From the sequence record PZ171032.1: DNA of 64,000 nucleotides; one strand, 5' to 3'. Position numbers and translations under genes: made by a program. Below the pieces are notes generated by a model. It saw only the letters and a list, made by a program, of their open reading frames with translations, was not told the DNA's origin and did no database searches. Source of the DNA: a phage. This document shows, one piece after another, positions 1,030-29,163 of this stretch. The first letter of the stretch is position 1; the number at the start of each line of letters is the position of its first letter.

Positions 1030-1048
1030 ACCAGGGTGGAGGGTTTTT

Positions 1049-1234: not shown

Positions 1235-1236
1235 CT

Positions 1237-1326: not shown

Positions 1327-1329
1327 ATT

Positions 1330-1626: not shown

Positions 1627-1628
1627 CA

Positions 1629-2378: not shown

Positions 2379-2390
2379 TGGGTAACCGTT

Positions 2391-2789: not shown

Positions 2790-2806
2790 AACAGTGAGGT
2801 GTCACT

Positions 2807-3097: not shown

Positions 3098-3103
3098 AAA
3101 CTG

Positions 3104-3132
3104 TTGACACAACGCTTCAGCTATAGTATTAT
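3104..3132 (+). promoter_or_regulatory. sigma70-type promoter (TTGACA-N17-TATTAT) followed by 5'UTR hairpin
   Basis: TTGACA and TATTAT with 17-nt spacer; inverted repeat AGAGAGA/TCTCTCT at about 3142-3167 before the AAGGAG RBS of the HPF-like gene. Confidence 0.6.
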
Positions 3133-3184
3133 TGTTTTCAAAGAGAGATGGTTGTTATTCTCTCTTCCTTAAAAGGAGCACGTT

Positions 3185-3502
3185 ATGCAAATTGAAATCA
3201 CTGGCAACGTAGAAATCACTGAAGGTATGGTGTCTTTCATTTCCCACAAAATGTCTAAGCTGGAGCGTTTGCACCCCTCTGCCAACTATGCACGTGTTAG
3301 TGTAAAAGTTGAAAATGATCACCAGGAAGTTATGGCGTTCATTTTTGACAATTCTGGAAAAGAAGTTATTGCCAAAGCTAAAGGCAGTGATGCTTACGAG
3401 GCAACTGACCGTATGGTAGATGTTGCAGCACGTCAGCTGGCTAAATGCGGTGGAAAGAAAGGTAAGGGGAAAGGCAAAGTAAAGATTGACTTTGGAGAAT
3501 GA
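3185..3502 (+). CDS. ribosome hibernation promoting factor / RaiA (YfiA) family homologue
   Basis: MQIEITGNVEITEGM...KLERL...ARVSVKVEN...GSDAYEATDRMVDVAARQLAK aligns along its length with bacterial HPF (MQLNITGNNVEITEAL...KLEQY...VYVVLKVEK...GQDMYAAIDGLIDKLARQLTK); lysine-rich C-terminal tail. Confidence 0.8.
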   Translation: MQIEITGNVEITEGMVSFISHKMSKLERLHPSANYARVSVKVENDHQEVMAFIFDNSGKEVIAKAKGSDAYEATDRMVDVAARQLAKCGGKKGKGKGKVKIDFGE

Positions 3503-3511
3503 GGTGCTACA

Positions 3512-3613
3512 ATGGGCGTGATTAAGAAATTAGTCCCAAATGTAGAGATTGCATGCTTTGAAATTATGTTTGCAATCGCAGTTGTAGTTAATGTGTTAGG
3601 TTACGGCTATTAA
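3512..3613 (+). CDS. tiny hydrophobic peptide (33 aa)
   Basis: GAGGTG RBS 6 nt upstream of ATG; fills intergenic gap; hydrophobic core FEIMFAIAVVVNVLGY. Confidence 0.3.
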   Translation: MGVIKKLVPNVEIACFEIMFAIAVVVNVLGYGY

Positions 3614-3639
3614 TATCAAATAATTGAGGAGACCTCTAA

Positions 3640-3909
3640 ATGAAAATTAAATTATTCAAAACTGAGCTGGCAGACAAAAATTGTGGTCTGGTTGAAGGCA
3701 TGATTGTTGAAGCACAACCAGTGGACTATATGAAGGTGGTTCGTGATGCCCTGGGTGAAGGTTTTGATCTGATGGAGCCAGCTCTGCGGGAAGATGTTAT
3801 CGAGATGGCTAAAAAGCACACACCTGAAGGTTTGGTGGTGTTTATTGCACCGGGTAACGGAGAAGAGTTGATTGTAACTCCTGATGTGTATGAGATTGTA
3901 GAGGAATAA
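3640..3909 (+). CDS. hypothetical protein (family A-like C-terminus)
   Basis: GAGGAGA RBS; C-terminus VTPDVYEIVEE resembles the family A C-terminal motif. Confidence 0.6.
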   Translation: MKIKLFKTELADKNCGLVEGMIVEAQPVDYMKVVRDALGEGFDLMEPALREDVIEMAKKHTPEGLVVFIAPGNGEELIVTPDVYEIVEE

Positions 3910-3999
3910 TCCTGCTTGTATTAGCATACTTCCTCGATAAGGAAGGTTTGTAATTATTTGTGGGAAAGGAATCCCATCTCTTACCAGAGGTGATACTAT

Positions 4000-4263
4000 A
4001 TGATTGTTTATTTTAAAACTTCAGGTGGATACCCTGATTCTCAAAGCTTGATCGGAAAAACGTGCACAGCATACTCACCTCTTGATGAGGAGGTAAGCGA
4101 TATTCTACGAAATATGTATCGGATTGATCCCCAAGAAGCTTTTGATCAAAACCTTGTATTTGTCAAAGGCTCAGACATGAAGTCTTTGGGAGCATTCCCT
4201 GAAGCAGATGATGATGCCGTTTATTCGTTCATGACCCCTTTTGAAGCTATGGTTGTTGGGTGA
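4000..4263 (+). CDS. hypothetical protein
   Basis: GAGGTG RBS. Confidence 0.6.
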   Translation: MIVYFKTSGGYPDSQSLIGKTCTAYSPLDEEVSDILRNMYRIDPQEAFDQNLVFVKGSDMKSLGAFPEADDDAVYSFMTPFEAMVVG

Positions 4264-4267
4264 TAAT

Positions 4268-4600
4268 ATGAAAGTACGCTTTATTGGTGAAACAATTCCT
4301 GTGCATCTCCGGTCGCCTGAAGATTCTGCGGATCTTGCATCTCAGAAGGCGAGAGGTTATGATAAGAAAGTAATCTCAACCGATGTAGAACTTGAGGCTA
4401 CTAGTCTACCTGACCCTGCTGCATTCTTTAATCATTATGGATACTATTTCAGCAATCTGATGAATATCGGTGAGCTTGTGTTTATTAGTGGTGGAGAAAT
4501 TGTTAGCAAGCTTGGCGGAGATCCGGATGTCTTTCATGAAACCTGTCCTTTTGCATTTGTGGTGGGTTCGGATGTGGAAGTTATTGAGGAGGTGCAGTAA
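4268..4600 (+). CDS. hypothetical protein, paralogue family A
   Basis: track ORF starts at TTG 4241 overlapping upstream gene; ATG at 4268 follows upstream stop; C-terminus FAFVVGSDVEVIEEVQ. Confidence 0.6.
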   Translation: MKVRFIGETIPVHLRSPEDSADLASQKARGYDKKVISTDVELEATSLPDPAAFFNHYGYYFSNLMNIGELVFISGGEIVSKLGGDPDVFHETCPFAFVVGSDVEVIEEVQ

Positions 4601-4995
4601 TGGTAAGCCTATACCGTGTTGAGTATAGCTCAGATACTGTATACAACGTAAGAAGCAAAGATCGCAGCGACAGAGTGCAAGAAATGTATGTTCTTGCCGA
4701 CAGTCCGTTATCTGCAGCGTTCAAGGCAGGGGCTCTTGCATCTCGTTGGAAATTTGAAGGCGGATCTTTCTATGAAGAAACCCTTGAAGATTCTGTTGTT
4801 ATTTCTTCTGTAGAGGTTTCAGATGACTACGAAGGGAAAAAGTTCGTAATGCGGCACCCACACAGCAACATTGCGTACTACTGGGATGTTCTGAACAACG
4901 AGTGGACCCCAGATCTTCAGAAGGCCACTGTGCTAACACCGTTTTTGGCAGATAAGTTCCCACCAGAAGGTAATTTATCCGCACTGTTTCAGTAA
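4600..4995 (+). CDS. hypothetical protein, paralogue family B
   Basis: paralogue of 2391-2789; start overlaps upstream stop. Confidence 0.6.
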   Translation: MVSLYRVEYSSDTVYNVRSKDRSDRVQEMYVLADSPLSAAFKAGALASRWKFEGGSFYEETLEDSVVISSVEVSDDYEGKKFVMRHPHSNIAYYWDVLNNEWTPDLQKATVLTPFLADKFPPEGNLSALFQ

Positions 4996-5013
4996 TTTTC
5001 TTGCACACAGGTG

Positions 5014-5042
5014 TTGACAACACCAACCCTGTGTGAAATAAT
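5014..5042 (+). promoter_or_regulatory. sigma70-type promoter (TTGACA-N17-AATAAT) nested in an inverted repeat
   Basis: TTGACA and AATAAT with 17-nt spacer; flanked by 8-bp inverted repeat CACACAGG / CCTGTGTG (about 5004-5035), operator-like. Confidence 0.55.
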
Positions 5043-5074
5043 ACCTTCATCTTAACAAGACGGGAGACTGATTG

Positions 5075-5332
5075 ATGAAGATTAAACTGAAAAACCTTGA
5101 AATGGCAGAGATTCAGAATGGTGTTGATTTCCGCTCTAAAGATGGTGACATCTTAGAGGTAAATCTTCCAACCTACGAGCTGATTAAAGGTTTTGGCAAC
5201 GTTCAGGAAGAGGATATTCCAGAAATTCTTATGATGTTGATTCTTGACGGAACTGTGTTTGTAGGTGAAGGTGAGAACGCTATTGCAATCCCAGGCCATT
5301 TTTATGAAGTAGTTGACGAAGAGGTGCTGTAA
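5075..5332 (+). CDS. hypothetical protein (family A-like C-terminus)
   Basis: ATG at 5075 preceded by GGGAGA; C-terminus FYEVVDEEVL. Confidence 0.6.
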   Translation: MKIKLKNLEMAEIQNGVDFRSKDGDILEVNLPTYELIKGFGNVQEEDIPEILMMLILDGTVFVGEGENAIAIPGHFYEVVDEEVL

Positions 5333-5683
5333 ATGAAAGTAGAAATTACTGGTTTTGATGTTAGTGTGGTTCCGGAAGATATTTTAGCTAAACTCCCGGA
5401 AGGTTTTGGTAACGGTGTTGTGGTGGATGCTGTTCCTCCTACTAAAGACATTCTGCTGCAGTATGGTGTAGCAGAGGAAGATGTCGATAAAGTTCTTACA
5501 ATGATGGCAATCGATCGTGTTGTCGTTGTTAAAGGTCTCGATAATTTTGAGAGTGATCCTCTGATTATTCGCGGGGATGACTATAAAATCATCGATAATG
5601 AAGGCCAAGAGTTCTATGAGCCTTGTGCAGAAGATATTCTTAACTTATTACTGGAAGCAGGCACCGAAGAGGAGGACGAATAA
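5333..5683 (+). CDS. hypothetical acidic protein
   Basis: start immediately after upstream stop; acidic C-terminus. Confidence 0.6.
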   Translation: MKVEITGFDVSVVPEDILAKLPEGFGNGVVVDAVPPTKDILLQYGVAEEDVDKVLTMMAIDRVVVVKGLDNFESDPLIIRGDDYKIIDNEGQEFYEPCAEDILNLLLEAGTEEEDE

Positions 5684-6012
5684 TGAAGATTGACCCGTTA
5701 CTGAAGGCTCGTGCAGAAAAAGCGTACACCATTAAGCTGACCAACCTGGTTCCTACTTGTCATCCAGATGTAGGTTGGCCTGAAGGTCTGGTAGAGGGGA
5801 CTGTAACAGCTGCATACCTTCCTAACATCAAATACCTTATGGAAATCTTAGAGATGGATGAGGAAACTGCAGAACAGTTCCAGTTGGATATGAAACAGAG
5901 TGGGACTCTGGTTATTCACGGGTGGTATAATACTAAAGATGCAGAAGACCCTCTGGTAACTTCTAATCTGGCATATGAAATCTTAGGGCCTTTGAACCTG
6001 GAGGAAGACTAA
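5683..6012 (+). CDS. hypothetical protein
   Basis: ATGA overlap with upstream gene. Confidence 0.6.
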   Translation: MKIDPLLKARAEKAYTIKLTNLVPTCHPDVGWPEGLVEGTVTAAYLPNIKYLMEILEMDEETAEQFQLDMKQSGTLVIHGWYNTKDAEDPLVTSNLAYEILGPLNLEED

Positions 6013-6299
6013 TGAAAGATCTGGTTAAGATTAAGATTAAAGATACCAATGGGGAGCTCAGCCATTTTGGAATTAATGATGGTGACGAGCTGATCGCACA
6101 CCTGCCTACCAAGGAGGTTGTAAGCAAAGCAGTTGCCGGAGAAGAAGCTGCAATGCAGGCTGCAGGTGTGGATGAAAACTATGTAGCTATGTGCATGTGC
6201 CGAGATCAGGTTGTTCTGTATAAAGCGTATCGACCAAACGGAGCCACGGAGTGGCTTGTATTCCGACCCGAAGGATATGAAATCTTAGAGGCACTATGA
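6012..6299 (+). CDS. hypothetical protein
   Basis: ATGA overlap. Confidence 0.6.
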   Translation: MKDLVKIKIKDTNGELSHFGINDGDELIAHLPTKEVVSKAVAGEEAAMQAAGVDENYVAMCMCRDQVVLYKAYRPNGATEWLVFRPEGYEILEAL

Positions 6300-6379
6300 T
6301 AAATCTTGCCAAGGTTGCAACGGCACTGTTAATTATTTGCTGGTCAGTAACCTTAACACTGTGTCTTGTATTTCAGTGA
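6296..6379 (+). CDS. tiny hydrophobic peptide (27 aa)
   Basis: ATGA overlap with upstream stop; predicted single TM segment LLIICWSVTLTLCLV. Confidence 0.25.
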   Translation: MINLAKVATALLIICWSVTLTLCLVFQ

Positions 6380-6388
6380 GGTGCTTGT

Positions 6389-6652
6389 ATGAACATCCTG
6401 ATGTGGGTTATAGCAGTGGCGTTTGTTGCATGTTTTTGCTGCTGGGTTGTGGTGAGGATTTCTGTAGCTACCCTTCGGAAGTTGGGGTTCTCAGAATGGG
6501 ATATTAATATCCTTTCTTTTCGCAATGAAACAATCTCAGCCGCCCTGCTTTGTAAGAAATTTAAGTGGGAACCTTGTGAGGTCATGAGCTATCTAAGAAC
6601 AGGCGATATCCCTGAAAGATTTAAAAAAGTTCTTGACGGCAAGGATAAATGA
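6389..6652 (+). CDS. hypothetical membrane protein
   Basis: GTGAGGTG RBS; N-terminal TM helix WVIAVAFVACFCCWVVV. Confidence 0.6.
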   Translation: MNILMWVIAVAFVACFCCWVVVRISVATLRKLGFSEWDINILSFRNETISAALLCKKFKWEPCEVMSYLRTGDIPERFKKVLDGKDK

Positions 6653-6680
6653 CAGTATAGTGACTAACAAGAGGTGAGGG

Positions 6681-6821
6681 GTGACTGATTTTACTGAAGC
6701 TTTAATGATGGCCTTGTCTGTTTTAGCGCTATCGGTGTGTTTTGGGGCGTTATTCACATCTCTGGTTAAAGTTTTACATACAGTATTATTACCCAAGGGG
6801 CGCAGTAATGACGAAGATTGA
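6681..6821 (+). CDS. small hydrophobic protein (about 46 aa; GTG start, may start at internal ATG)
   Basis: GAGGTGAGGG RBS then GTG; TM-like LMMALSVLALSVCFGALF; overlaps next gene start. Confidence 0.3.
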   Translation: MTDFTEALMMALSVLALSVCFGALFTSLVKVLHTVLLPKGRSNDED

Positions 6822-7059
6822 CTTGAATGCTGGCGATCATGTTGTTGTCAAATGCATTGGAGATTATCTTGGATTCACAATCGGCAATACTTACGAGGCG
6901 ATAGTGGCGAAGGTTTATCATGATAAAGTCCTCAGTCTTGTATTTGACTGCGATGATGATGGGGATGACCGATACGTCTGTGAGGTGCTGGCACGAGACG
7001 ATAGTGAAGACCAGAAATTTCTGGTTATTGAACTGAACGGTATTTTTGTAGAACGTTAA
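6808..7059 (+). CDS. hypothetical acidic protein
   Basis: track ORF starts at 6742 (non-ATG); first ATG at 6808 (MTKIDLNAG). Confidence 0.6.
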   Translation: MTKIDLNAGDHVVVKCIGDYLGFTIGNTYEAIVAKVYHDKVLSLVFDCDDDGDDRYVCEVLARDDSEDQKFLVIELNGIFVER

Positions 7060-7087
7060 TTTAAAACAACATAAGGAGACTCTTACT

Positions 7088-7393
7088 ATGGCTAAATCTA
7101 AAGTTGAACTGTTCACCTCTCTTCCTTCTGACACTGCAGAGCGTGATCGCCTTCGCAAAACAATCGAAGAACTGGTGGAACTCCAACTTCAGATTAAAGA
7201 TCTGAAAGATGCCATTAAGGATATCATTCTCGTTGAGAAGCAGGATCATCTGTATTCTCCTAAATTCATCAAATCTTTGGTGGCTACAGAGTTTGATATC
7301 CGCTACGAAGCTGAAAAACGTCGCGCTAAGATTGAAGAAGAGGTTGAGCACATGTCTGAGGCAGACATTCTGTTCAAACGCTCTGTAGAATAA
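7088..7393 (+). CDS. hypothetical protein (charged, helical-looking)
   Basis: AAGGAGA RBS; charged helical composition. Confidence 0.6.
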   Translation: MAKSKVELFTSLPSDTAERDRLRKTIEELVELQLQIKDLKDAIKDIILVEKQDHLYSPKFIKSLVATEFDIRYEAEKRRAKIEEEVEHMSEADILFKRSVE

Positions 7394-7398
7394 TATGG

Positions 7399-7428
7399 CA
7401 GAGGGGCTACGGCCCCTCTTTCACTATT
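7399..7428 (+). terminator. rho-independent terminator-like hairpin
   Basis: GAGGGGC-TACG-GCCCCTC stem-loop followed by a T-rich tract, directly after the stop of 7088-7393. Confidence 0.5.
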
Positions 7429-7445
7429 TGCAAAAGGAACCAGCT

Positions 7446-7772
7446 ATGAGAATGCCAATCACTGTGAAAGAGCTAAATGAACGTGATGCAGGTGGTCTAT
7501 GGCCTGCACGAAAAATCCGCTGCGTCTATATGAAAGAGAATCTTGAACACCTTGATCAACAGATCAAGGTCGGTGATATTTTCGAGGTCTTCTATTCCAA
7601 TCGTCGCAACTGGGAAACCATTCAGCCTTCTGGTTTTGTTCTTGCCAAACTTGACACTGGAGAAGTGATTATCCCTGGGTTGGATATTGTCTTCGAAATT
7701 ATCCAGGAGTGGGATCCGGATAAGATTAGATACGAAGAATTATTCGGTAAAGGTATTATCAAACCTGTGTGA
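7446..7772 (+). CDS. hypothetical protein
   Basis: track ORF starts inside the hairpin at 7395; in-frame ATG at 7446 (MRMPITVKE) lies after the hairpin. Confidence 0.6.
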   Translation: MRMPITVKELNERDAGGLWPARKIRCVYMKENLEHLDQQIKVGDIFEVFYSNRRNWETIQPSGFVLAKLDTGEVIIPGLDIVFEIIQEWDPDKIRYEELFGKGIIKPV

Positions 7773-7780
7773 GGTGGATT

Positions 7781-8080
7781 ATGTCTACAAAGGCAGCTAA
7801 ATACTCTTATATGCCATCAACCTCTGCAGAGGTAGACTTTAGTTTCGATGTATTTCCACTGTTTGAGGTGGTTCTGGCATACCCTACAATACTATCTACA
7901 CCTGAATCACTTGTGCCTGTTAAGTTGCAGAACGCTATGCATTCCATGCACTACAACAATAAATGTAGGCACAGATGGTGTCAGGACGAGGAAAAAGATT
8001 TGGATAGTTTGAGGGATTTTGACAGTCACCTTTTGACACCTTTTAGCTACTCCAATCTTGATAAGCCCTCTTGGGTATAG
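7781..8080 (+). CDS. hypothetical protein
   Basis: track start GTG 7769; ATG at 7781 preceded by GTGAGGTG. Confidence 0.55.
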   Translation: MSTKAAKYSYMPSTSAEVDFSFDVFPLFEVVLAYPTILSTPESLVPVKLQNAMHSMHYNNKCRHRWCQDEEKDLDSLRDFDSHLLTPFSYSNLDKPSWV

Positions 8081-8293
8081 CAAAATATCAAATTTAAGAC
8101 ACCTAGGACGCTCTGTGGCGTCCTTTTCTTTATCTGGTGCACGATTGCATACCTTTGACAGATAATCTCATTACAGAGCGTTTAAGAGCTTCCTACAAAC
8201 AAATCTCTCTTTCGAGCGTAGCGAGAACGCACGTCCGTTTTGACCCAAATCACCATACGCTCGGATTTTAACCAAACCCTCGCGGCGTTTCTG

Positions 8294-8322
8294 TTGACAC
8301 ATTACCGCTTCAGTGATAGTAT
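8294..8322 (+). promoter_or_regulatory. sigma70-type promoter (TTGACA-N17-TAGTAT)
   Basis: CTGTTGACACA...CTTCAG...ATAGTAT closely matches the promoter at 3104. Confidence 0.55.
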
Positions 8323-8342
8323 CCACACATAGTTTGGAGAAT

Positions 8343-8444
8343 ATGGAATACACAATGAAAACACTGTCAGAGGTTTTAGTGGTGATCCTGATGATCATTA
8401 CGTCCATAGCAGCTGTTGCCGGAATACTCACGGGTGGAACATGA
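8343..8444 (+). CDS. tiny hydrophobic peptide (33 aa)
   Basis: just downstream of promoter; TM-like VLVVILMIITSIAAVAGIL; ATGA overlap with next gene. Confidence 0.35.
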   Translation: MEYTMKTLSEVLVVILMIITSIAAVAGILTGGT

Positions 8445-8653
8445 TCAACACACATGCATCTGAAGAGATATCCGAAGGAGTGACCATATGTCCCTTGGCT
8501 GAGCTAGGGAAAGAGGAAAACTTCGATTCTGAAGATTCTCCATCTCCGTCCCAGGGAGACCCTGAGGCTGATGACCTAACGTGGGAGGATATCATAGCCA
8601 TCTGGTTCTCTATTATGCCTGAGCACGAAGAGTTCAGAGGTGGGAGACTATGA
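8441..8653 (+). CDS. hypothetical acidic protein
   Basis: ATGA coupling to upstream peptide; acidic. Confidence 0.5.
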   Translation: MINTHASEEISEGVTICPLAELGKEENFDSEDSPSPSQGDPEADDLTWEDIIAIWFSIMPEHEEFRGGRL

Positions 8654-8774
8654 AGCACCGAGCCCACACAGGTTCCTCATGCTTTAGCATGGCCTGAAGA
8701 GGCAAACGTGCATAATTCCTGTGCATTGGAACGTATAAAACCCTGTTCACACTCTCATTTCCAGAGGAGATTTC

Positions 8775-8990
8775 ATGAAAATAGAAATATTTGGTGGGGC
8801 TGACAACACTCGTGGCCTGATTTACCTTGAATTCGATGAATCATACCTGCCAGAGGTGTTAAATATGGACTCTGTTGCTGAGGCTTTGGGGGTAAGTCCT
8901 AAAGAACTCCACTCTTGTGCTGAGATCGATGGTTGGGAAGAGACCATGAACATTGATTTCAGTGAAGTAGGTGATGAACCGCTGGACTGA
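8775..8990 (+). CDS. hypothetical protein
   Basis: GAGGAG RBS upstream of ATG. Confidence 0.55.
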   Translation: MKIEIFGGADNTRGLIYLEFDESYLPEVLNMDSVAEALGVSPKELHSCAEIDGWEETMNIDFSEVGDEPLD

Positions 8991-10489
8991 CACACAATAT
9001 TAGATGTCCGGCTAAAGTGCTGGAAGCACCTATAGCATATCTTTCAACTAAATTTCCTACCACCACAATCACTTACCTCCCACACATGACTGTTTGCTTG
9101 TTTAGTGAGCAGTCATGCCTTGACATTCTTGCCTATCCTGATAAAATTAAGTTCTTCTCTTTTCTTTTACCGAGTAATTCGGGTTTTCTGTTCTCTTCGG
9201 TTTGAAGGGGTATGGAGATACACCTGAGTGAACAGGGTGAACAACCGAACATTCGGCTATGGCATTAGCATGGCGAAGCGAACGGGTGACGAAAGAGGGG
9301 CCGGAGGACACCAGTCACTGCCATATGATATATGGGTGATAACCTGAAGAGTCTGAATAAGTGTTTAAGTACCAGTCAGAGGAAAAGGTGAATGGTAGCC
9401 GAAGGGGGAGGGGGGGTTTCTTGTATCTTTAATTTGTATATTATGTATACACTTGTAAACCAATTTCATCTGAATCTGTTTACCATACAAAGTGGATTGA
9501 GACAAATATTACCTATTAAACTTGAATTATTTATAGAAAATACCACAACACACCTTAAGTCTTTGATTTTACACATAAATCCTACAGATATTCAACCTCC
9601 ATATTTAACATACTTGTAACATATCCTATACCACACCTGCCTGATCAATTTCCCCAACTACATCCTCTATATTTTACCTGCCTGTACTACCCCTGCCCCG
9701 CCGGGAGTCCCGTCATATCTGGCTTTCCAGCAAATATCCCACCAACAAATATCATTGCCTGAAGAGGGTTTCATCCCATAATACATGCCTTATCTGAAGA
9801 GCGCTTCATACACCACGTAAATTTTTTAATTGACCCCTCCCCGCCGCCGGAGAGGTTGGCTTTTCCCACACAGACCTGAAGAGTCAGCCAGAAATATCTG
9901 AATAGGCCCAATTCTACCACGATTTTGACCTGACCTACAGGGAGGCCCGAAGGGTCTAGCTTTCAGCTAGAGTCCTTGCAGGACCTACAGGAGTGCTGCC
10001 AGGCGGACGGAATGGGAATACTTCTCATTTTTATAATAATTCTCAAATATCGAGGCAGTGAGGCAAATTAATAGGTGAGGCCGTTCACACAGTGGCACAA
10101 CATTTGCAACCTATCTTGTGTGGGGGAATGATAATACCTATCATTGTGAGAACCATTATCATTACGGGCAATTTAACATAATACCCATTATGCGCACCAC
10201 TGGCGATACATACAGGGATTGATAACATGAGTTACAGTTTACGCATATAACAATTATATTTCTTATCATTTGTGTGGGATATAGTTAGCAGCCAATAGAT
10301 TAGATATTGACCTGCATACTTCCAACCGTCTAGACGTCTAAACGCCCACACACCAAGGATTATACATACACTCCTGAATGTAAACAGGGCCGCAAAAATG
10401 CTACCATACAAGCTTGTAAATTTTTCATGCAGCACTTGACAAAGAGGAGAAAAACTTGTCTGACATAATGTGACCTAACTGACACAACA

Positions 10490-10590
10490 TGACACTTTTA
10501 CACACCTATTAGTTTACACACTGGATTGTTTACATTCCTGATTGTTCACATGCTAACCATTTACATGATTGACTGTTTACACACCGATAA
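10490..10590. repeat. iteron-like array of short direct repeats (TTTACACAC / TTTACAT, about 15-bp period)
   Basis: at least six copies of TTTACA(C/T) words spaced about 14-16 bp apart within 100 bp of ORF-free DNA. Confidence 0.5.
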
Positions 10591-10593
10591 TCA

Positions 10594-10613
10594 GCCATGC
10601 CATTCGTTTGCAT
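10594..10613. repeat. 20-bp direct repeat GCCATGCCATTCGTTTGCAT, copy 1
   Basis: exact 20-mer repeated at about 10825-10844. Confidence 0.6.
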
Positions 10614-10656
10614 GACAATAATTATACATGACAATAATCGCACTGATTATAATTAG

Positions 10657-10722
10657 CATGACATAATATAAAAGCAGGGCAACTATTAGCAGATCTATAG
10701 TTGCCCTGCTTGTTATGTCATG
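10657..10722. repeat. long imperfect palindrome (perfect 15-bp arms AAGCAGGGCAACTAT / ATAGTTGCCCTGCTT, extended by CATGACATAA arms)
   Basis: reverse-complementary arms around a 9-nt centre, seen directly in the sequence. Confidence 0.6.
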
Positions 10723-10824
10723 ATTAACTAAATACAAGGCAACTATGATCTGATTAATAGTTTGCAGACAAACTATCACGGGGGTGATGGTTACTGCTTT
10801 TATATTATGTCGCGACTCCGTCGC

Positions 10825-10844
10825 GCCATGCCATTCGTTTGCAT
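10825..10844. repeat. 20-bp direct repeat GCCATGCCATTCGTTTGCAT, copy 2
   Basis: exact copy of 10594-10613; preceded by palindromic GTCGCGAC. Confidence 0.6.
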
Positions 10845-11461
10845 AGTTGCCTTATTGTTACAGGTAAAATAATTACATTATTAATTATTTCTTATCTTTC
10901 TCTTAGTCATCTAATGATTCCAGTCAGTATAGTAATGTACAGTAAACATTAGACGACTAAATATTTCTATGCTTATGATAACTTGCCGTGACAATTTCGG
11001 ACTGTTTACGAAAAATGTTGACACCTGGGCGGGTTTATGTTATGCAGTTTACACGAATAATTATTTCATACAGGTATTGACTATTCCGTTATTCTGTGGT
11101 TGGAATAAATACTTTGCAGGCTATAGAATGGTGTGCGTACGTGAATTCTAAGATCTGGCGGCTATAGTTACACCCGATTTTTCACGTAGAACACGCTTTT
11201 TGGTTTGTGTAAGTGTATGACTTATAAAGATTTTTAGTTGTTGACAGGATATTGAAGATGTGCATCAGGTTAAATTTTGTGCAATAGCTGCAGTACGTGC
11301 ATTTTTGGAAGGAAAAACGTGTAAAAATGGTCCTGCTACCACATAATGAAAGATTATGCAATAGCTATTTTATATGTATATTTGTACAGTGTGTGGGATT
11401 GATGGCTCGTCAATTATTCCACTTGCTGGGTGGGGCCGTTTGTGGTAGGAGGAGAGCAGAC

Positions 11462-11486
11462 AAAAAGAAAGGGGCCTAAGCCCCTT
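11462..11486 (-). terminator. rho-independent terminator (minus strand)
   Basis: minus-strand hairpin AGGGGC-TTAG-GCCCCT followed by a T-run, just past the stop of gene ending at 11506. Confidence 0.5.
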
Positions 11487-11505
11487 GATAATGTAAATTG
11501 TTGTA

Positions 11506-11770
11506 TTATTTGTTACTCATCCAGTTTTCCCAAGCTGCCTGATAATCTGCCTCACTGCGGCGGATCTCTTCTTGTTCTTCAAGCCGGATCTCTTCTTCCA
11601 GGTACCCCAAGATATCGGCTTTTTTTGGTCTGGCGTAACATCCAATCATCTTTTTTACGGGTAAAGATCTTATATGCTTTCTCGCAAACCTCTTTTTTGC
11701 TACCTTTTTGGACTTCAAGAACTTTGTAGGCCATGTACTGAACTAGTTTGAGCTGATCAAGACGTTTCAT
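11506..11770 (-). CDS. hypothetical protein, apparently interrupted by a frameshift at a homopolymeric A tract
   Basis: two overlapping track ORFs (11579-11770 and 11506-11718) in different frames; frame switch coincides with an A7 run; fused product would be about 88 aa. Confidence 0.4.
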
Positions 11771-11833
11771 GATGTTTACCTCTTTATGGGGTTCTGGTTT
11801 GGTGTGGGCCTTTTGGCCCGTGTCATTATCTTA

Positions 11834-12106
11834 TTACTTACGGCGGCAAAATTCAAGTGTTTTTAATTGATAATCTTCCTCAGCTTGGAGTACAACCGCC
11901 TCGATCATTTCGTTGGCATTGGTGAAGCCATACCCTTGAGCGAACTCATCCGCGCCACCTTCGTGATCATGTTCTGCGTTCATCGCTTCCACAAAATGGA
12001 ATTCAAGATTGTTGAGGTAAGGGCTTGATGTTCCGTCCTCTTTTTCGATGAGATCCCAGATAGCATTAAAACGTGATTCGACTTCTTGATTAATCCAGCT
12101 TGACAT
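11834..12106 (-). CDS. hypothetical acidic protein
   Basis: ORF with compact spacing; no motif. Confidence 0.6.
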   Translation of the reverse strand: MSSWINQEVESRFNAIWDLIEKEDGTSSPYLNNLEFHFVEAMNAEHDHEGGADEFAQGYGFTNANEMIEAVVLQAEEDYQLKTLEFCRRK

Positions 12107-12318
12107 AATGTTTTCCTCTCTTCTGGTTGTTGTGTGGGCACTTTTGCCCCTTCAAGATAAATGATACCCCCACCACCTGGCAGATGTCAACGGTTTTTAT
12201 AGTTTTTTATATAACAGGCACCCACGGTGATTGTCTCCCCCCGTCGCCAAGTGCCACCCGTGAGACAAGTATACCAAAAAACAGGACCATTGCAAGCCCT
12301 GTTTATAGTCTATAAGGA

Positions 12319-12510
12319 TTATATTTTTTCGCCTATGTAGTCCGGCCTATTCTTTTCGGTCATACGCTTAAGCATTTTTTGCATATGGCTTATAGCTTGT
12401 AATGTATCCTCTTCCAGGGATGAATCTAGATAATCAGGATCATTCTTCACCTTGCAATGATTATGATAACGCAGTACCGCCAGTACTTTTTTAACTTCTT
12501 CCGCTGTCAT
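12319..12510 (-). CDS. hypothetical protein
   Basis: ORF; no motif. Confidence 0.55.
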   Translation of the reverse strand: MTAEEVKKVLAVLRYHNHCKVKNDPDYLDSSLEEDTLQAISHMQKMLKRMTEKNRPDYIGEKI

Positions 12511-12518
12511 TATCGCGC

Positions 12519-12653
12519 CTAAAACAATGAGTTAATATATAACACCAGATCGCTGACTACCAGGACAACATTAATCAGCACATACCTAACCATAAAGGGA
12601 AAGATCGCCAACATTGCCGCCACGATCCCCATGGTAATAATTATCTTTCTCAT
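12519..12653 (-). CDS. tiny hydrophobic peptide (44 aa)
   Basis: ORF filling the gap before 12319-12510; TM-like IIITMGIVAAMLAIFPF and VLINVVLVV. Confidence 0.3.
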   Translation of the reverse strand: MRKIIITMGIVAAMLAIFPFMVRYVLINVVLVVSDLVLYINSLF

Positions 12654-12921
12654 GGTTAACGGTTCACGTAAGTTTTCCCGTTTACGGTTATCGGCAGATC
12701 CTCCAGGTCTGGATCTTCTTTAAGGTCGCGAGCAAGTTCACCGCACCGAACGCCCTCGAATCCGTAGTACTCTGTCGTGCCATCCTGGAAAGTTTTAGCG
12801 GCAAGGCATAGGCGATAAGTAACACCGATTTGATTGACGGCATGGATATCAGTTAGATCTACCTCTTTTGCCAGCTTTTTGGCGCTTACAGGGCCAACCA
12901 GGGGCGCTATTCGTAGGATAG

Positions 12922-18263: not shown

Positions 18264-18326
18264 AATACGTCGCTCTCTGTTAGTCTGTGCGTATATTATA
18301 CACTGTAGTTTTCAGATGTCAATCTT

Positions 18327-18521
18327 TTACAGGTTACTCCAGTATACTCGGCATTTACATTTCGGGCAATGAGGCTCTTTTATGTAATAACCATCAGTCT
18401 TTGGAACACTTTTTGGTGCAGTTTTAAGATTGTACCGAGTAAAACACCGGAAGCAGGTTACCTCTCCAACCTGTTGATCGTTTATCCACTCGCCAGAGTA
18501 AAGCTCTCTCTTGTTTCTCAT
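18327..18521 (-). CDS. hypothetical Cys-rich small protein (CxxC...CxxC)
   Basis: ATG at 18521 preceded by GGGAGAG RBS (track start 18578 is upstream GTG); paired CxxC motifs. Confidence 0.5.
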   Translation of the reverse strand: MRNKRELYSGEWINDQQVGEVTCFRCFTRYNLKTAPKSVPKTDGYYIKEPHCPKCKCRVYWSNL

Positions 18522-18718: not shown

Positions 18719-18771
18719 AGTGCTCCCTCTCTCAATCGTTGTGGTGACTATACCATCTCAAAAACCCGCTG

Positions 18772-19230
18772 TCAACACTTTTTGTACTCCACCACGATAA
18801 TATTCATATCAAAAGTGGCAAGGTTAATAACGTCCTCTACGTGCTCCCACTTCAAACCGCCTATGCCGCACCCGATCTTAGGGATGTAGAATGGTAAAGT
18901 CGATCCACTGAATACCTCATTGACTAGCTCAAAGCCTTTCAGGATTGAGAAATATTCAGCATTAGGTCCTGGGTAGAACTGAGTATACAGATTGATTCCG
19001 TAGACAATACCTCTCGGAGATAAGTGCTCCCATCGGGAGAACGCACCCAGTTTACTTAGGCAACCGTGTCTGGTCTCTTTGTCAGCTGCCAATGCTTGAG
19101 GGAACTCACGGGCAATCTGTTTTGCTATCCCCTTGCCCATTGTGTGGAAGCAGTTACAACCGTGGATCAGGTGACCAGCACCGCTCTTAAAAAGGGAGAT
19201 TAAATCTCCCTCTACAGTATCAATAATCAC
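18772..19230 (-). CDS. macro-domain (ADP-ribose binding / processing) protein
   Basis: HLIHGCNCFHTMGKGIAKQI and IPKIGCGIGGL resemble the macro-domain N-terminal (NAAN...GGGV) and C-terminal (G-x-G-x-x-G) signatures; start moved to GTG at 19230. Confidence 0.5.
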   Translation of the reverse strand: MIIDTVEGDLISLFKSGAGHLIHGCNCFHTMGKGIAKQIAREFPQALAADKETRHGCLSKLGAFSRWEHLSPRGIVYGINLYTQFYPGPNAEYFSILKGFELVNEVFSGSTLPFYIPKIGCGIGGLKWEHVEDVINLATFDMNIIVVEYKKC

Positions 19231-19645
19231 GGTATGCCAGCTCCTCTTCCGCAATTTCAAAAAACTCAGTCCAGCACTGTGGCATATTGGAGTTACCGAA
19301 GTGGCTTTCATAGTAAAGGTTCTCACCACTTGGAAGATAGAAATCTGTTACCTCATAGAATCCACAATCGTCGCACTCGCCTTCTTCAAACTTAGCCTCA
19401 ACCTTAATACCGAGGAAGGTGAAAAGTTTATGGATATCTTCAGTTTCGAACTCCCAGTGAATGTTGTTTTCCGCATCGGTGTAGAACTGGATCAGCAGAC
19501 CATTGTCCAGTTTACCAAAATACTCTGTGAAGTAACTTCCTTCCCAGAAATCTTTATGACAAATAATATCCATGCGTTTGCCCATAATAATGGTGTGAGC
19601 GTTTTGGGCATCGTCACGAATCAGTTTTGGCATTTCATAGATCAT
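19220..19645 (-). CDS. hypothetical protein
   Basis: ORF; no motif. Confidence 0.6.
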   Translation of the reverse strand: MIYEMPKLIRDDAQNAHTIIMGKRMDIICHKDFWEGSYFTEYFGKLDNGLLIQFYTDAENNIHWEFETEDIHKLFTFLGIKVEAKFEEGECDDCGFYEVTDFYLPSGENLYYESHFGNSNMPQCWTEFFEIAEEELAYRDY

Positions 19646-19713: not shown

Positions 19714-19911
19714 TTACACAGGAATTGCTTCAAACAGGCCGTTATCTATACCATCCTTCAGATAAAGATTATACTCTATGTCGGTATCTGTATAAAGGGC
19801 AGCATCCAGCATTCTATCTGTGAGTCCATCCATTGGGTGGAGAAACCACCACCCACGCCAGTCAAAGTAACAACCTGGTGCATCTTCTCTTACACGGATT
19901 CGATAAATCAT
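19714..19911 (-). CDS. hypothetical protein
   Basis: ORF; no motif. Confidence 0.5.
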   Translation of the reverse strand: MIYRIRVREDAPGCYFDWRGWWFLHPMDGLTDRMLDAALYTDTDIEYNLYLKDGIDNGLFEAIPV

Positions 19912-20007
19912 GGGCAGTGGCCTCCTGTTAGTTATACATCCCAGTTTTCTTCGTTCATCACGTCCTCCCGTTTTATGAAGTTATAATTGCACACCTTTCA
20001 ACCTGTG

Positions 20008-20424
20008 TCAACAGAAAACTTCAACAAATTCTTCCACAGTTTTAATGTCGTGGGAAAAAGGTTTACGGCTATAACGGGCAATAGCACTATCAACCACCGC
20101 CCGGTACTCAAGATCTTCAGAGTATTTCATGAAGCATTGCAGTGTTTCTGGACAGATAGCCAGATAGCTCCACCACCCTTCATCAGATTGATAGTCAAAG
20201 CCCATGCTCTCCAACCATGAAGCATATACTCCAGCACCCTCAAGCCAGTGAGTATTTTCATCCAGAAACTTGTTAACAGACATGTGAGCTTCTAAGCACT
20301 TGTCCAGCTCTTTTCCGTTAACCAGCCACGCACTGACCGTGGCGCATCCAAGGTCTACAGATTGAGTTGACAGGTTGTATTGGTCATAGTTCTCAGGTTT
20401 AACAATGATATCTTCTAATGTCAT
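20008..20424 (-). CDS. hypothetical protein
   Basis: AAGGAG RBS immediately after terminator; no motif. Confidence 0.6.
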   Translation of the reverse strand: MTLEDIIVKPENYDQYNLSTQSVDLGCATVSAWLVNGKELDKCLEAHMSVNKFLDENTHWLEGAGVYASWLESMGFDYQSDEGWWSYLAICPETLQCFMKYSEDLEYRAVVDSAIARYSRKPFSHDIKTVEEFVEVFC

Positions 20425-20443: not shown

Positions 20444-20471
20444 AAAAATGCCCCACCCTTTCGGGCAGGGC
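20444..20471 (-). terminator. rho-independent terminator (GNRA-looped hairpin plus U-run), minus strand
   Basis: minus strand GCCCTGCCC-GAAA-GGGTGGGGC followed by ATTTTT; same element recurs at 32073-32100. Confidence 0.6.
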
Positions 20472-20486
20472 TATGTCAGTTAGGTG

Positions 20487-21110
20487 CTAAAAGTATTCAT
20501 AGAGGTATCCATCGGGAGCTGGAATTTTTTCATGAATGTAGTAATCAACACATATTCCGGTTTCTCTTCTACAAGAGTTGTGGGATACCCATTCTTTAAG
20601 AATGTTGCCATTCATGTCCAGCCTCCTTACATTTTTACACCGTCTACCGCTGGTGCTTCTATGCAACAGAATATCCTCCGTCTGCTTGTCTTTATTTTCT
20701 CCCCAGGTCGTTAAACGGATATTATCAAAAGAGTACCCTTTGAAATCATCTATCCTGTCACAAGAAGGCTTTTTCCTTTTGTCGTATCCGCTGGCTACCC
20801 ACTGATCATACAACTCTTTGTAACCGTTTAGGTATAGCCACTCCTTAAACTCTTTTTTGGTGTAAGTCGGAGGAGGGTGACCTCTTTGCTTGCTGTTGCA
20901 CTTTTGAGACTTGTACAGCACGCGTATTACACCTTTTTCTGAAGAGTCGTGGGAAAACTGGTCAGCCTCTCTGCTGGCCTTCTTACAGCACTCTTTGCAC
21001 TTATTAAGATGACCGTCAGCCATCTTTGGATGTTTGTAAAACTCGGAGAGGTTTTTCACCTCTCCGCACTTGATGCACCTCTTACAATGCGTAGATTCTA
21101 CTTTTACCAT
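20487..21110 (-). CDS. Cys-rich zinc-finger protein (CxxC...H...CxxC; possible HNH-like nuclease or DNA-binding regulator)
   Basis: [36 protein letters not shown] treble-clef-like motif at N-terminus. Confidence 0.55.
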
Positions 21111-25543: not shown

Positions 25544-25897
25544 TTAGTGACAATCACCCCAATTACGACCACACAGGTATTCACCTGTGATCTGGAACGG
25601 GACGCCCATCATTTTAGAAGCTTGCCAGAAGCAATGCACCACCATTTCACCCACAGGGCTCCAGATAAGTTCAAGCTTTCCGTCATCGTTCAGGATAGGA
25701 TCGTACACCGTGTTTCCGTCTCTGTCAACCACTTCGTTTCCGTCCTCATCCTTGCGTGCCTTTTTGTACTTATGACCGTCGAACACATGAAGTTTGGCCT
25801 CCTGCTCTGCCTTAAATGCTTCCAGTTCTTCAATTGTGTCGAAGGTGTACACAGTCTTATACTTCGGTGTGTCAGGCACTTGAAGTTGGTACTCATC
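25544..25897 (-). CDS. family A DNA polymerase, C-terminal exon (exon 2)
   Basis: reading frame opens with DEYQLQV, supplying the DE of motif C (HDE), and ends ...GRNWGDCH like T7 gp5 (...GPNWAICH) and Klenow (...GENWDQAH); no ATG of its own. Confidence 0.65.
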   Translation of the reverse strand, partial: DEYQLQVPDTPKYKTVYTFDTIEELEAFKAEQEAKLHVFDGHKYKKARKDEDGNEVVDRDGNTVYDPILNDDGKLELIWSPVGEMVVHCFWQASKMMGVPFQITGEYLCGRNWGDCH

Positions 25898-26739
25898 CAA
25901 TAGTTCAGGTAGGTCGTTAAGCTACCCCGCACCATTACGTGCACAGCCATACAGTTTCCTGTATGGATCGGACTATCTCACTACCTTGTTACCAAGGCAC
26001 CTCCCATTTCGACCGCACTTGCTGGCCTACTCTACTCGCTTCTTCGCACCAATTTATGTTGGCGCTATGCTTTCGATAGTCTCTGAACGTTACTACCAGG
26101 TGTAGTTTTTAGAGATATGTTTCCACTGTCTTCTTTGCTTTATGGCTCTGACCGTCTCATAAGGATACCCAAGATCCCTAATCTCGCATTGTCGTAAACC
26201 ACTTTGTAACAGTTCGCAAATCTCCGTTACCTCATCCTCGGTCAGTACAGCGTTGGCATTATACTCACCGACTGGCCTTACTCTGAGGTCATTATCATAA
26301 GCGTGTTTGATATTTCCACCAGGGGTGGTCCATTCAAGGTTCCAGTATGCATTGTTGTATTTGTTTCCGTCCTTATGGTTCACCCATGTGAGCCTTTCAG
26401 GATCAGGGTTTGATACAAAGCATTCAGCAACCAAGTGGTGGACACCTTTTGTGCACTGCTTCCCCTCGATGAACATGGTTACGCAAAGGTAACCTCGACC
26501 ATTATCAAAACAGAACATTGTTGTATGATCACGTTTCGATAAAGGTATTGTTCCATCATCAAACACGGTATATCCGTGATAATCAACTGATCTAGCCATT
26601 TTAACTACACCCCTTTAGTCTTCGCTGCGGATTAGCATATTGAGCTTTTACCATGTTTAGGTGTAAAAGTCAACTTAGCCTTCCCGTCAATTAAAGAGGT
26701 TTTCGACGTGCATCACTGCACGAAGCCACAATGTTATTT
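25898..26739 (-). mobile_element. putative group I intron (842 nt) carrying an HNH homing endonuclease ORF, inserted in motif C of the DNA polymerase gene
   Basis: exon 1 ends CAU (U at -1), intron ends with G, joining restores Y-Y-H-D-E; GNRA-capped hairpin CCATACAG-GAAA-CTGTATGG at about 25947-25966; HNH ORF in separate frame. Confidence 0.6.
26093..26599 (-). CDS. HNH homing endonuclease
   Basis: HHLVAECFVSNPDPERLTWVNHKDGNKYNNAYWNLEW matches the phage HNH_3-type motif (H-x-V-x-E ... VNH-x-DGNK-x-NN ... NLEW). Confidence 0.8.
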   Translation of the reverse strand: MARSVDYHGYTVFDDGTIPLSKRDHTTMFCFDNGRGYLCVTMFIEGKQCTKGVHHLVAECFVSNPDPERLTWVNHKDGNKYNNAYWNLEWTTPGGNIKHAYDNDLRVRPVGEYNANAVLTEDEVTEICELLQSGLRQCEIRDLGYPYETVRAIKQRRQWKHISKNYTW

Positions 26740-29163
26740 ATGGTAATAGATAATACGACGAACACCTTCATCGTACCACCCACGCTTCACCATTTGGTGG
26801 TGCATAAGTATCCCAACTAAGTCACACAGCGATGCACCACCATTCTGTTGGTATGCATTAAGTAAAGAGTGTTTAGATCGGGTCCAGATGGCATGACCAT
26901 CAAAAGAGTAGATAAACTTCTTACCCGTTGCTTCCCAGAATTTCTCCAGATCCTCTTTACGCCCCTTAAGACCAGGGTTGGCATCCCAAAGTGCATCGAT
27001 CACCCTTTGTCCCAACTCTGGAGAGATGTCCAGCATATCTGCAACTTTATCTTTTTGTGCCCCGTACATAACCCCATACGTGATAGGTTTACCGTCGTTA
27101 CGAGACACCTCTCTGCCTGCTACTTTTGTATATGCCTCAGCATTGTTTTGGTGTGCGTCCCCGTTACTTACAACATCATAATACAAGCCGTTGTCGAACT
27201 CAAAGGCACCCCAAGCCCCGATAAGCTGCTCTAAGTTGGACCCGTCAATACCGATCTCAAAGTATCCTGGAGGAACACCCCACAGACTACGCATCTCTTT
27301 ACCCATAACCACTTTAGGAGATGGTTTAGGCATGTTTGCACAAATACTGTGTTTCTGTCTGGAAGTGTTTGTTAATCCAGAGCTTTTAGCAGGAAGCTTA
27401 TGGTCAATCTTCAAACGTGGGTGATTAAGAAGACCAGTATCAACCTTATCCTCCTTAATTGGATCAAGGACCGATCTGCGGTTTCGCAATGATAACCACA
27501 AGACGATATCTTTAGCCATCTCTCCGTTCAATTTTTCAAGATTCGGACATAGGTGTCCAAACGTATCTTTCAGTTGCGGAGAAGTAATAAGTGCTCTGGC
27601 TTTTCTACGTATTTTCCCGAATACTTCCTTTTTAATCCTTTCGGAGTTAGGAAAGCTTCGGAACTTGTGCACGGTTGTCTGGAACTTAGCATCAGTTTTG
27701 TTCCAGAAGTTGATAATCAGGTCACAATACTCTGACTCTAAAAGCTCGTCCATATATGCATATACTCGTGCATCAACATCTGCATCAGGTAGAGCTTTCT
27801 TCTTGCTGTCTTTAGTTACATCCTTAGTTCTCCACATTGTCGGAAGCCAACCAGCACTGATCAGGTATCGCTTAATATCGTCCTGATTGCTGATTTTCAT
27901 AGGTATCTTGCAGTCAGGCATTCGCTTCTGCTGCAGATCGCTTATTGCCTGATCCATCAGCTCTTTAGGTAAAGGTTGTGGTGTGGAGGTGCCCTTAATA
28001 TAACCTCTCAAGAAATCAGCCATCTTGTCTGGGTCTTTGCAGCCCATCTCTTCACACCATTTTATCCCCATTTTACTGACATCTCCTGTGGAGGTAAATG
28101 CTCGCTTAGGTGGGGCTTTGAACTCTAAAGCGCTCATGTCTACAGGATAGCCAAGCTTATCTTTTAACCATTTCCAACCATTATTGGAGATTGTCCCATC
28201 TTGGTTAAACGGCTTTTCAGGGAACTTGGGCCGCTGAGACATTGACAGCTCTTTTAAAGGTAGTTGTGGTTCAACACGATCAGCTATTTCTTTCATCCAC
28301 GCATCGCAACGGTCACGTAAAGCAATAGCCCCGTCTATGTCGAAATACACACCCTGACGGGCCTGCAGCTCCATCAGGAAGTGCTGCAGCATGCCTCGGC
28401 GTAATGCGTTCTTCCAGGTGATCTTCTTGAACCCTTTTGGCTTCTCTTTGGCAGGATCGTACATAAAGTTCTGCATGTCAGATTTGCCGTAGAATACACC
28501 TTTTGATTCCGCTACCAGCTCTTTCCAGAGCAGCTCCTGGATGATAACGTCCTCGAATACACGATCCACATACTTCCACAGCGGAAGATCGCGCCAGTCA
28601 TCAATTTGAACTTTCTGGTTACCAAGAGCGTAGCCCCATGCCATAAGGCCGTGAGGACCAACAGGCTGCATTTTCTTAGTAACCGGGTTGAATACAGAGT
28701 CCGGACAACCTTTTGGTAAAGGGCGATCAGGCCACAAGATTCGGCTCATCGCCAACGTATCGAACAGGTTAACCTGGTGGTCGTTGATAGTCCCCATACA
28801 TTTAGGATCACGGAACATATCAAAATGAATACCGGATAATCTCTCCATCAGCATAAAGTCATAACTGTAGCAGTTATGGCAGTTCAAAGCTGTTGGTGAC
28901 CAGTCGGAATTTCCTGTAAGCCAACCTTCCAACTCCGAAAAATCTGCTATGCGAACTTCAAAATCTTTATAAAGAGTTTTCTTTGCCAGAATAAAGTTCT
29001 TAGCCTTCTCTATATCCTCCTCGGAGTAGTGTGTGCGGTCATTTAGAGGAAGGAACAGCATAAAACGGTTCTTATTCAGCTCTTTAAACAGGCCGCAATG
29101 ATAATAAAGATCTGGGTCTTCCAGCAAACCGGATGACTCAAAATCGAACGACCACATGCTCAT
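26740..29163 (-). CDS. family A DNA polymerase (T7 gp5 / Pol I-like), exon 1 with 3'-5' exonuclease and polymerase motifs A and B
   Basis: Exo I FDFESSG; motif A IGIDGSNLEQL; motif B RNDGKPITYGVMYGAQ; ORF stops at ...IIYYH-K* exactly where motif C HDE is expected. Confidence 0.85.

Follow-up and report, generated by a model that had tools for sequence, protein, structure and literature searches.

The macrodomain gene and its surroundings

A standalone macrodomain gene lies on the minus strand at positions 18772–19230 of the window, the 64,000-nucleotide stretch of phage DNA analysed here (sequence record PZ171032.1). The gene is part of a long minus-strand array of small open reading frames (ORFs) of unknown function, which is bounded by a DNA polymerase/helicase block (from ~26.7 kb) and by a divergence region near 9.6–11.5 kb. 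The features of the locus are as follows, each promoter being a consensus match only.

18295–18322, minus strand: sigma-70-like promoter, 12/12 consensus positions
18327–18521, minus strand: ORF192, a 64-aa phage zinc-binding protein (Pfam PF23903, 80 bits)
18747–18775, minus strand: sigma-70-like promoter, 11/12, directly downstream of the macrodomain gene
18772–19230, minus strand: macrodomain coding sequence, relative of T4 Tk.4/AdfM, 152 aa, GTG start and TGA stop
18856–18885, minus strand: second Gly-rich, diphosphate-binding loop IPKIGCGIGG, residues 116–125 (from alignments)
18979–18993, minus strand: NLYTQ, residues 80–84, with the invariant Q84 at the catalytic Lys position
19123–19164, minus strand: first ADP-ribose-binding loop HGCNCFHTMGKGIA, residues 23–36 (from alignments)
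19220–19645, minus strand: upstream ORF195, 141 aa, pI 4.3, PHROG 8157, function unknown
19241–19245, minus strand: Shine-Dalgarno-like AGGAG, read from the sequence, 10 nt 5' of the GTG
19768–19796, minus strand: sigma-70-like promoter TTTATA-17-TATAAT, 10/12, the nearest upstream of the ORF195-macrodomain pair
19983–20011, minus strand: sigma-70-like promoter TTGACA-17-AATTAT with an extended -10 TG
20487–21110: endonuclease VII-like gene, the nearest named gene
26734–29163: DNA polymerase ORF (25544–28321 in the JES2013 annotation, with an indel there)

The window derives from an rV5-like Vequintavirus and shares 97.5% identity with Escherichia phage JES2013 over 5 kb. Between ~12.9 kb and ~25.9 kb the two are colinear and their coordinates coincide, and positions 1–12900 contain several indels in early-gene arrays, with identity down to ~90%. 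The predicted macrodomain protein is identical to JES2013 YP_008530439.1, which is annotated as "phosphatase"; the RefSeq record of rV5 names its own copy tk.4, and some sources call homologues O-acetyl-ADP-ribose deacetylase.

Reading of the sequence places the GTG start at 19230 and the TGA stop at 18772–18774, which gives 152 codons plus the stop and bears out the ORF location in the preliminary description of this DNA. The longest possible ORF at the locus reaches 19329. The start at 19230 is favoured because all homologues begin at the equivalent MIIDTV position (with an ATG there in RB49), because AGGAG precedes it by 10 nt, because the JES2013 RefSeq annotation uses identical coordinates, and because a longer ORF would overlap the upstream gene. 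We therefore rejected both the ORF from 19329 and the 165-aa start of PQ014731, as these would add an N-terminal extension that has no counterpart in homologues and would overlap the upstream gene by 37–110 nt. The dN/dS of the macrodomain gene relative to rV5_ev168 is 0.13, and the ORF is a real gene under purifying selection.

The position of the gene had been described as next to replication genes, which holds only loosely: the DNA polymerase gene is ~7.5 kb upstream, with ~18 small ORFs in between. The immediate upstream neighbour is ORF195, the stop of which overlaps the macrodomain start by 11 nt, and the two genes are therefore probably co-transcribed. ORF195 has homologues of 35% identity in Krischvirus genomes and no Pfam match. 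In the one genome checked, that of Krischvirus RB49, no homologue of ORF195 occurs in the 4 kb to either side of the macrodomain gene, and nothing supports a functional pairing of the two. The idea that ORF195 is a DarT-binding partner replacing the C-terminal domain of DarG was rejected on the same two grounds, the missing Pfam match and the lack of linkage in RB49.

Several sigma-70-like promoter matches surround the gene. The match at 19983–20011 stands upstream of an ORF at 19714–19911 and follows a terminator-like hairpin at 20450–20471. The -35 element TTGACA of the match at 18747–18775 overlaps the macrodomain stop codon, and this match together with the one at 18295–18322 suggests densely packed, independent early transcription units. 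Such matches are enriched between 17 and 23 kb (18 observed vs 10.1 ± 3.2 expected), a pattern that fits early transcription by the host polymerase.

A Pfam domain scan of positions 1–37 kb was performed on concatenated ORFs of at least 90 aa, with the named replication and methyltransferase genes left out. Neither NADAR/AdfN, an ADP-ribosyltransferase, Sir2 nor another NAD-related domain was found among these ORFs, and no NAD-related domain is annotated in the remainder of the window; a second ADP-ribose-related gene in the window was thus rejected. The window has no Rfam family at gathering score and no tRNA.

Two further regions of the window deserve a brief mention. A 105-aa ORF on the plus strand at 3185–3502 matches Ribosomal_S30AE (PF02482) with 43 bits against a cut-off of 23.7, and is a possible phage homologue of ribosome hibernation factors (ribosome hibernation/sigma-54 modulation family). 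Positions 9620–11500 form a gene-poor, AT-rich zone between plus-strand genes and the minus-strand early array (GC 0.34–0.36 at 10.4–11.4 kb). This zone contains a perfect 15-bp hairpin (10672–10686/10697–10711), repeated GGCAACTAT-type units and an exact 20-nt direct repeat at 10594 and 10825, and no gene is annotated in most of the matching stretch of JES2013. According to a preprint, transposon insertions are not tolerated in the ~2 kb intergenic region that corresponds to this zone in Vequintavirus Bas54. The zone is a candidate replication origin or regulatory hub.

Macrodomain fold and active site

The protein scores 28.3 bits (E 1.9e-6) for Pfam PF01661 (Macro), above the gathering cut-off of 22, and PHROG 335 matches it over its whole length (E 4.8e-59). 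The DarG models of PADLOC (1e-13) and NCBIfam (1.6e-12) are the top matches of their libraries, in both cases to the macrodomain portion only. An AlphaFold2 model built from 40 homologues (mean pLDDT 95.4, pTM 0.90) has alternating strands and helices, and a Foldseek search of the PDB returned TARG1, Poa1p, the DarG proteins of T. aquaticus and M. tuberculosis, BT1257 and SCO6735 with probability 1.00 and a TM-score of ~0.75; viral nsP3 and Mac1 macrodomains ranked after these. The search gave 187 PDB matches at E≤1e-3, and the best 50 of the 187 are macrodomains or designed enzymes on a macrodomain scaffold. Among solved structures the closest in sequence is the M. tuberculosis DarG macrodomain 5m3i (E 4e-7 for the sequence alone, 2.6e-17 with the family profile). 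The protein thus has the three-layer alpha/beta/alpha macro fold with a mixed central sheet and two Gly-rich loops that form the ADP-ribose cleft, and the assignment is far beyond chance. The preliminary description had proposed a macro domain, to be checked by profile search and structure prediction; both a macro hit and a macro fold were found, and the proposal is confirmed. The protein belongs to the TARG1/DarG/SCO6735 (ALC1-like) class.

The two motifs on which that proposal was founded were recovered at nt 19123–19164 (HGCNCFHTMGKGIA) and nt 18856–18885 (IPKIGCGIGG). Two alignments, of 30 and 40 sequences, were prepared, both of them including the window protein and the smaller one also T4 Tk.4. 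In these alignments, H23, N26, Q84, P117, G120, G122 and the Gly-loop residues are invariant or at least 90% conserved. H23, G24, N26, M31, G34 and A36 of the first loop are invariant or nearly so across the family; in the window protein the conserved loops read MGKGIA and GCGIGG. The window protein carries K33 in the first loop, as DarG does, whereas most family members have Ala or Ser.

Alignment of the family profile to solved structures placed N26 opposite N22 of DarG, and Q84 opposite the lysine of the PTK motif, that is, K80 of DarG and K84 of TARG1. Chain counting with tag offsets reproduced the published DarG K80 and N22 and TARG1 K84. Q84 also falls opposite the Gln of IGQH in 5e3b (SCO6735; chain Q105, which is Gln85 after a 20-residue tag) and opposite the Gln of BT1257 (2fg1/2afc). 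The position of TARG1 Asp125 is taken by Gly (GCGIGG vs GCGLDR). As Q84 and this Gly occupy the Lys84 and Asp125 positions of TARG1, the window protein has no Lys/Asp dyad.

A glutamine at this position has a functional precedent. In the SCO6735 study, Gln85 was identified as the equivalent of K80/K84, and its mutation abolished activity; the enzyme was shown to release ADP-ribose from thymidines of DNA and to confer protection against DarT, and the authors proposed that it works through an activated water. The same study reported that SCO6735 also de-modifies proteins. T4 Tk.4 likewise carries NLYTQ, so a glutamine at this site does not preclude anti-DarTG2 function in vivo.

These comparisons bear on whether the target may be protein. 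The enzyme could remove ADP-ribose from proteins modified by host defence or toxin transferases, or by transferases of the phage itself in order to tune host takeover. The best Foldseek match, TARG1, is a de-ADP-ribosylase of protein Glu/Asp, the Gln-type SCO6735 accepts proteins as well, and T-even phages that carry the Tk.4 family also encode the transferases Alt, ModA and ModB. However, the TARG1 dyad is missing, and no ADP-ribosyltransferase domain was detected in ORFs of at least 90 aa at 1–37 kb or is annotated elsewhere in the window; we consider protein substrates quite improbable.

Small soluble ADP-ribose derivatives, instead of DNA adducts, would be another kind of substrate. The protein might act as an ADP-ribose-1''-phosphate phosphatase, as an O-acetyl-ADP-ribose deacetylase, or in the degradation of immune signals or toxins derived from ADP-ribose, for example in TIR/Thoeris- or RES-type systems. 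The historical "phosphatase/A1pp" annotation and the O-acetyl-ADP-ribose deacetylase label point in this direction, as does a published comparative-genomics survey, which argues that most phage macrodomains act on low-molecular-weight ADP-ribose derivatives. The yeast ADP-ribose-1''-phosphate phosphatase Poa1p is among the top sequence and fold matches, and its H23 and S30 correspond to H23 and T30 of the window protein. On the other hand, the sole functional data in the family, those for T4 tk.4, point to DarTG2, SCO6735, a relative with the Gln-type site, works on adducts of DNA and of proteins, and neither KptA/Tpt1, 2H RNA-repair partners nor NAD-related domains were found in ORFs of at least 90 aa at 1–37 kb. 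With this balance, a role in small-molecule turnover seems unlikely to us.

Distribution in phages and bacteria

By tblastn, homologues were found in 2,783 of 50,697 phage records, which places the family among the commonest candidate anti-defence enzymes. Carriers include T4-like phages, typically with the gene beside vs, as well as Felix-O1-like, Pakpunavirus, Vi1-like and phi92-like phages. Outside the Vequintavirinae, the copy in Krischvirus RB49 comes closest; it is 69% identical and occupies the T4-syntenic vs/tk.4/tk slot. Directly 3' of the RB49 macrodomain gene is a homologue of ORF192 with 75% identity. The position in RB49 and this pair of identities suggest that a small module was exchanged between T-even-like and rV5-like phages, namely by horizontal transfer of the macrodomain gene and the zinc-binding ORF between Krischvirus and Vequintavirus. 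ORF192 was also considered as a functional partner of the macrodomain and was rejected: T4 tk.3, tk.2 and tk.1 are unrelated to it, and the arrangement reads as co-transfer.

In bacteria, sampled at one genome per species, 353 homologous loci were confirmed, with identities of ~40%; they belong to Desulfobacterales, Shewanella, Rhodobacterales, Bacteroidota, Verrucomicrobiota and other groups. Neighbourhoods were compared for 74 of 80 retained loci. At all 74 the gene is standalone, encodes ~150 aa and conserves the Gln, and its neighbours are lineage-specific housekeeping genes. Inspection of the neighbours, made without a DarT-specific profile, revealed neither a recurrent neighbour nor a recognisable DarT-like gene at any of the 74 loci. 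We accordingly rejected the interpretation of these bacterial homologues as DarG-like antitoxins. Because the bacterial relatives are standalone orphans, the Tk.4 family looks like an orphan bacterial "repair" macrodomain that was taken up by phages, not a captured DarG. The orphan, housekeeping-looking character of these relatives is also a counterpoint to a DarT-related role, since the family is not obviously derived from an antitoxin.

The conservation among orphans is informative with regard to catalysis. A macrodomain could act mainly without hydrolysis if it bound and thereby blocked DarT2, or if it kept ADP-ribose or ADP-ribosylated DNA sequestered. Indeed, inhibition of DarT in vitro is retained in the catalytically dead variants SCO6735 Q85A, DarG K80A and TARG1 K84A, and the phage anti-DarT factors AdfA and ICP1 AdfB act by direct binding. 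In the present family, however, N26, Q84 and both Gly loops are near-invariant in phage and bacterial homologues, even in orphans without DarT, which indicates selection for catalysis; in addition, the window protein has no counterpart of the DarT-binding C-terminal domain of DarG. A purely non-catalytic function therefore appears very improbable.

Putative anti-DarT function and comparison with known systems

Functional evidence for the family comes from phage T4. When a T4 transposon library was screened on a host with DarTG2, only tk.4 emerged as a significant hit, and a clean tk.4 knockout turned DarTG2-sensitive; the gene was renamed adfM, for anti-DarT factor macrodomain. This evidence is wholly genetic and comes from a preprint of November 2025 (bioRxiv 10.1101/2025.11.20.689424). 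Aligned with T4 Tk.4 over its full length (153 positions, residues 1–150, E 4e-40), the window protein shows 39% identity; together with PHROG 335 and the conserved active-site residues, this homology matches the sequence profile of a Tk.4-type AdfM. As judged from sequence, the protein is the rV5-group counterpart of T4 Tk.4 and a predicted AdfM-type enzyme, not DarG. An anti-DarT-type anti-defence role, as the preliminary description had proposed, is thus supported, the support consisting of the homology to T4 AdfM and the conserved active-site residues. An identity of 39% to Tk.4 gives no guarantee of the same substrate, because macrodomains switch substrates readily.

In our judgement the gene probably encodes an early ADP-ribosyl hydrolase that strips DarT2-made ADP-ribose from thymidines of single-stranded DNA by Gln-assisted, lysine-independent chemistry. 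DarT2, as established for DarTG2, ADP-ribosylates thymidines in single-stranded phage DNA and thereby blocks replication. The gene, which would encode a catalytically competent standalone ADP-ribosyl hydrolase, would be transcribed early by host RNA polymerase from the sigma-70-type promoters, in a run of small early genes, and infection would activate the host DarTG2. The macrodomain would then bind ADP-ribose through its two Gly-rich loops and N26, and the ribose-thymine bond would be hydrolysed, with Q84 orienting the distal ribose and an activated water in the manner suggested for SCO6735, in place of the lysine chemistry of DarG2 and TARG1. Hydrolysis would restore replicable DNA. That the substrate is thymidine-linked ADP-ribose on DNA is an inference of ours, and the same holds for how catalysis proceeds, when the gene is expressed and what phenotype it confers on this phage. 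DNA repair by this route and the roles on small derivatives, on proteins or by binding are not mutually exclusive.

Phage T5 offers a small consistency check: it is sensitive to DarTG2 (bioRxiv 10.1101/2025.11.20.689424), and neither tblastn nor a profile HMM found a member of the Tk.4-type family in the first 86 kb of its genome. The RefSeq record of T5 labels the neighbours T5.102 and T5.105 as "Sir2 (NAD-dependent deacetylase)"; T5.105 (7588–8094 of the T5 stretch) has no similarity to the macrodomain family. Two papers that name both DarTG2 and Vequintavirinae are silent on the macrodomain.

A broader hypothesis is that Tk.4-type macrodomains form a lysine-free lineage of distinct mechanism, derived from orphan bacterial "genome-guardian" macrodomains and not from DarG antitoxins, with a substrate range that extends beyond thymidine-linked ADP-ribose on DNA and might include other ADP-ribosylated bases, RNA, proteins and ADP-ribose-derived immune signals. 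We hold this to be speculative, with a small chance of being correct. If true, one small enzyme in thousands of phages would disarm several NAD-based defences. Phage T4, though carrying Tk.4, is strongly restricted by the mRNA ADP-ribosyltransferase CmdTAC, which argues against unlimited substrate breadth of the Tk.4 type.

rV5-like phages, with their broad host range, are in wide use as candidates for therapy against E. coli. If the assignment holds, they carry a built-in enzymatic counter to DarTG2, and this would help to predict which host defences restrict them. The Gln-type family may also offer a natural system for lysine-independent removal of ADP-ribose from DNA. Existing records already label the gene a macrodomain/tk.4 homologue, and publications of 2025–2026 describe the anti-DarTG2 role of its family, so the idea is no longer new, and the added value of the present analysis is mainly in annotation and classification. 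The Gln/Lys split of AdfM lineages, the orphan bacterial relatives and the suggested Krischvirus-Vequintavirus transfer go slightly beyond the literature consulted.

Among characterized systems, Tk.4 of T4 (Straboviridae) is the closest. Both are standalone macrodomains of ~150 aa that have the motifs HGCNCFHTMG, NLYTQ.PGPN and IG.GIG in common and carry Gln at the catalytic position, and both genes are among non-essential early or middle genes. They differ in setting, the T4 gene being in the vs-tk interval and that of the window phage, with its GTG start, in the Vequintavirus early-gene array.

Macro-domain antitoxins of the DarG type had been named in the preliminary description as a parallel, and the comparison stands in part. 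DarG2 (T. aquaticus 5M31/5M3E, M. tuberculosis 5M3I) has the same fold, an asparagine (N22) equivalent to N26 and both Gly loops, but its K80 is replaced by Q84 in the window protein. None of the features specific to a DarG antitoxin was found: the score against the DarG equivalog model (NCBIfam NF048014) is 47.4 bits against a cut-off of 250; only profile positions 3–139 of 338 (NCBIfam) and 4–141 of 329 (PADLOC) are matched, so that the C-terminal DarT-binding domain is absent; and no darT lies beside the gene, the neighbours of which are small phage ORFs of unknown function. With no DarT-binding domain and Gln in place of the catalytic Lys, the protein is DarG-like in its macrodomain fold and is not DarG.

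TARG1/OARD1 and Poa1p, the top Foldseek matches (TM-score 0.71–0.76, normalised to the query), belong to the same class. TARG1 differs by its Lys84/Asp125 dyad, and Poa1p acts on a tRNA-splicing by-product, for which no pathway is evident in the phage region. SCO6735 and BT1257 resemble the window protein in the Gln at the catalytic position, in the His before the CN motif and in being orphan genes without a toxin partner. SCO6735 is remote in sequence (E ~1e-5 with a single sequence, 4e-15 with a profile) and has a long, Lys-rich mobile loop (K89, K93) that was proposed to grip DNA, whereas the phage family has a short QF.PGPN; the post-Gln loop of the window protein, QFYPGPNAEY, contains no lysines.

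The other phage enzyme named AdfM, gp104 of phiKZ, was demonstrated to strip DarT2-made ADP-ribose from DNA and to protect chimalliviruses against DarTG2, on biochemical and genetic evidence, and is imported into the phage nucleus (Cell Rep 2026, PMC13309987). It is likewise a standalone phage-encoded macrodomain, but is only 23% identical to the window protein, is a close relative of DarG2 and keeps the catalytic Lys78 (FPTK) where the window protein has Q84. Scores against the DarG model are 138 bits for phiKZ AdfM, 47 for the window protein and 30 for T4 Tk.4. Because Tk.4 and gp104 are barely alignable, with almost no BLASTP similarity, the name AdfM spans, as judged from these comparisons, two separate lineages: a DarG2-like Lys type in chimalliviruses and a Gln type in T-even, rV5-like and many other phages. 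Since the Gln site is shared by T4 AdfM and SCO6735 and not by phiKZ AdfM and DarG2, phages have at least two independent macrodomain solutions to this one defence.
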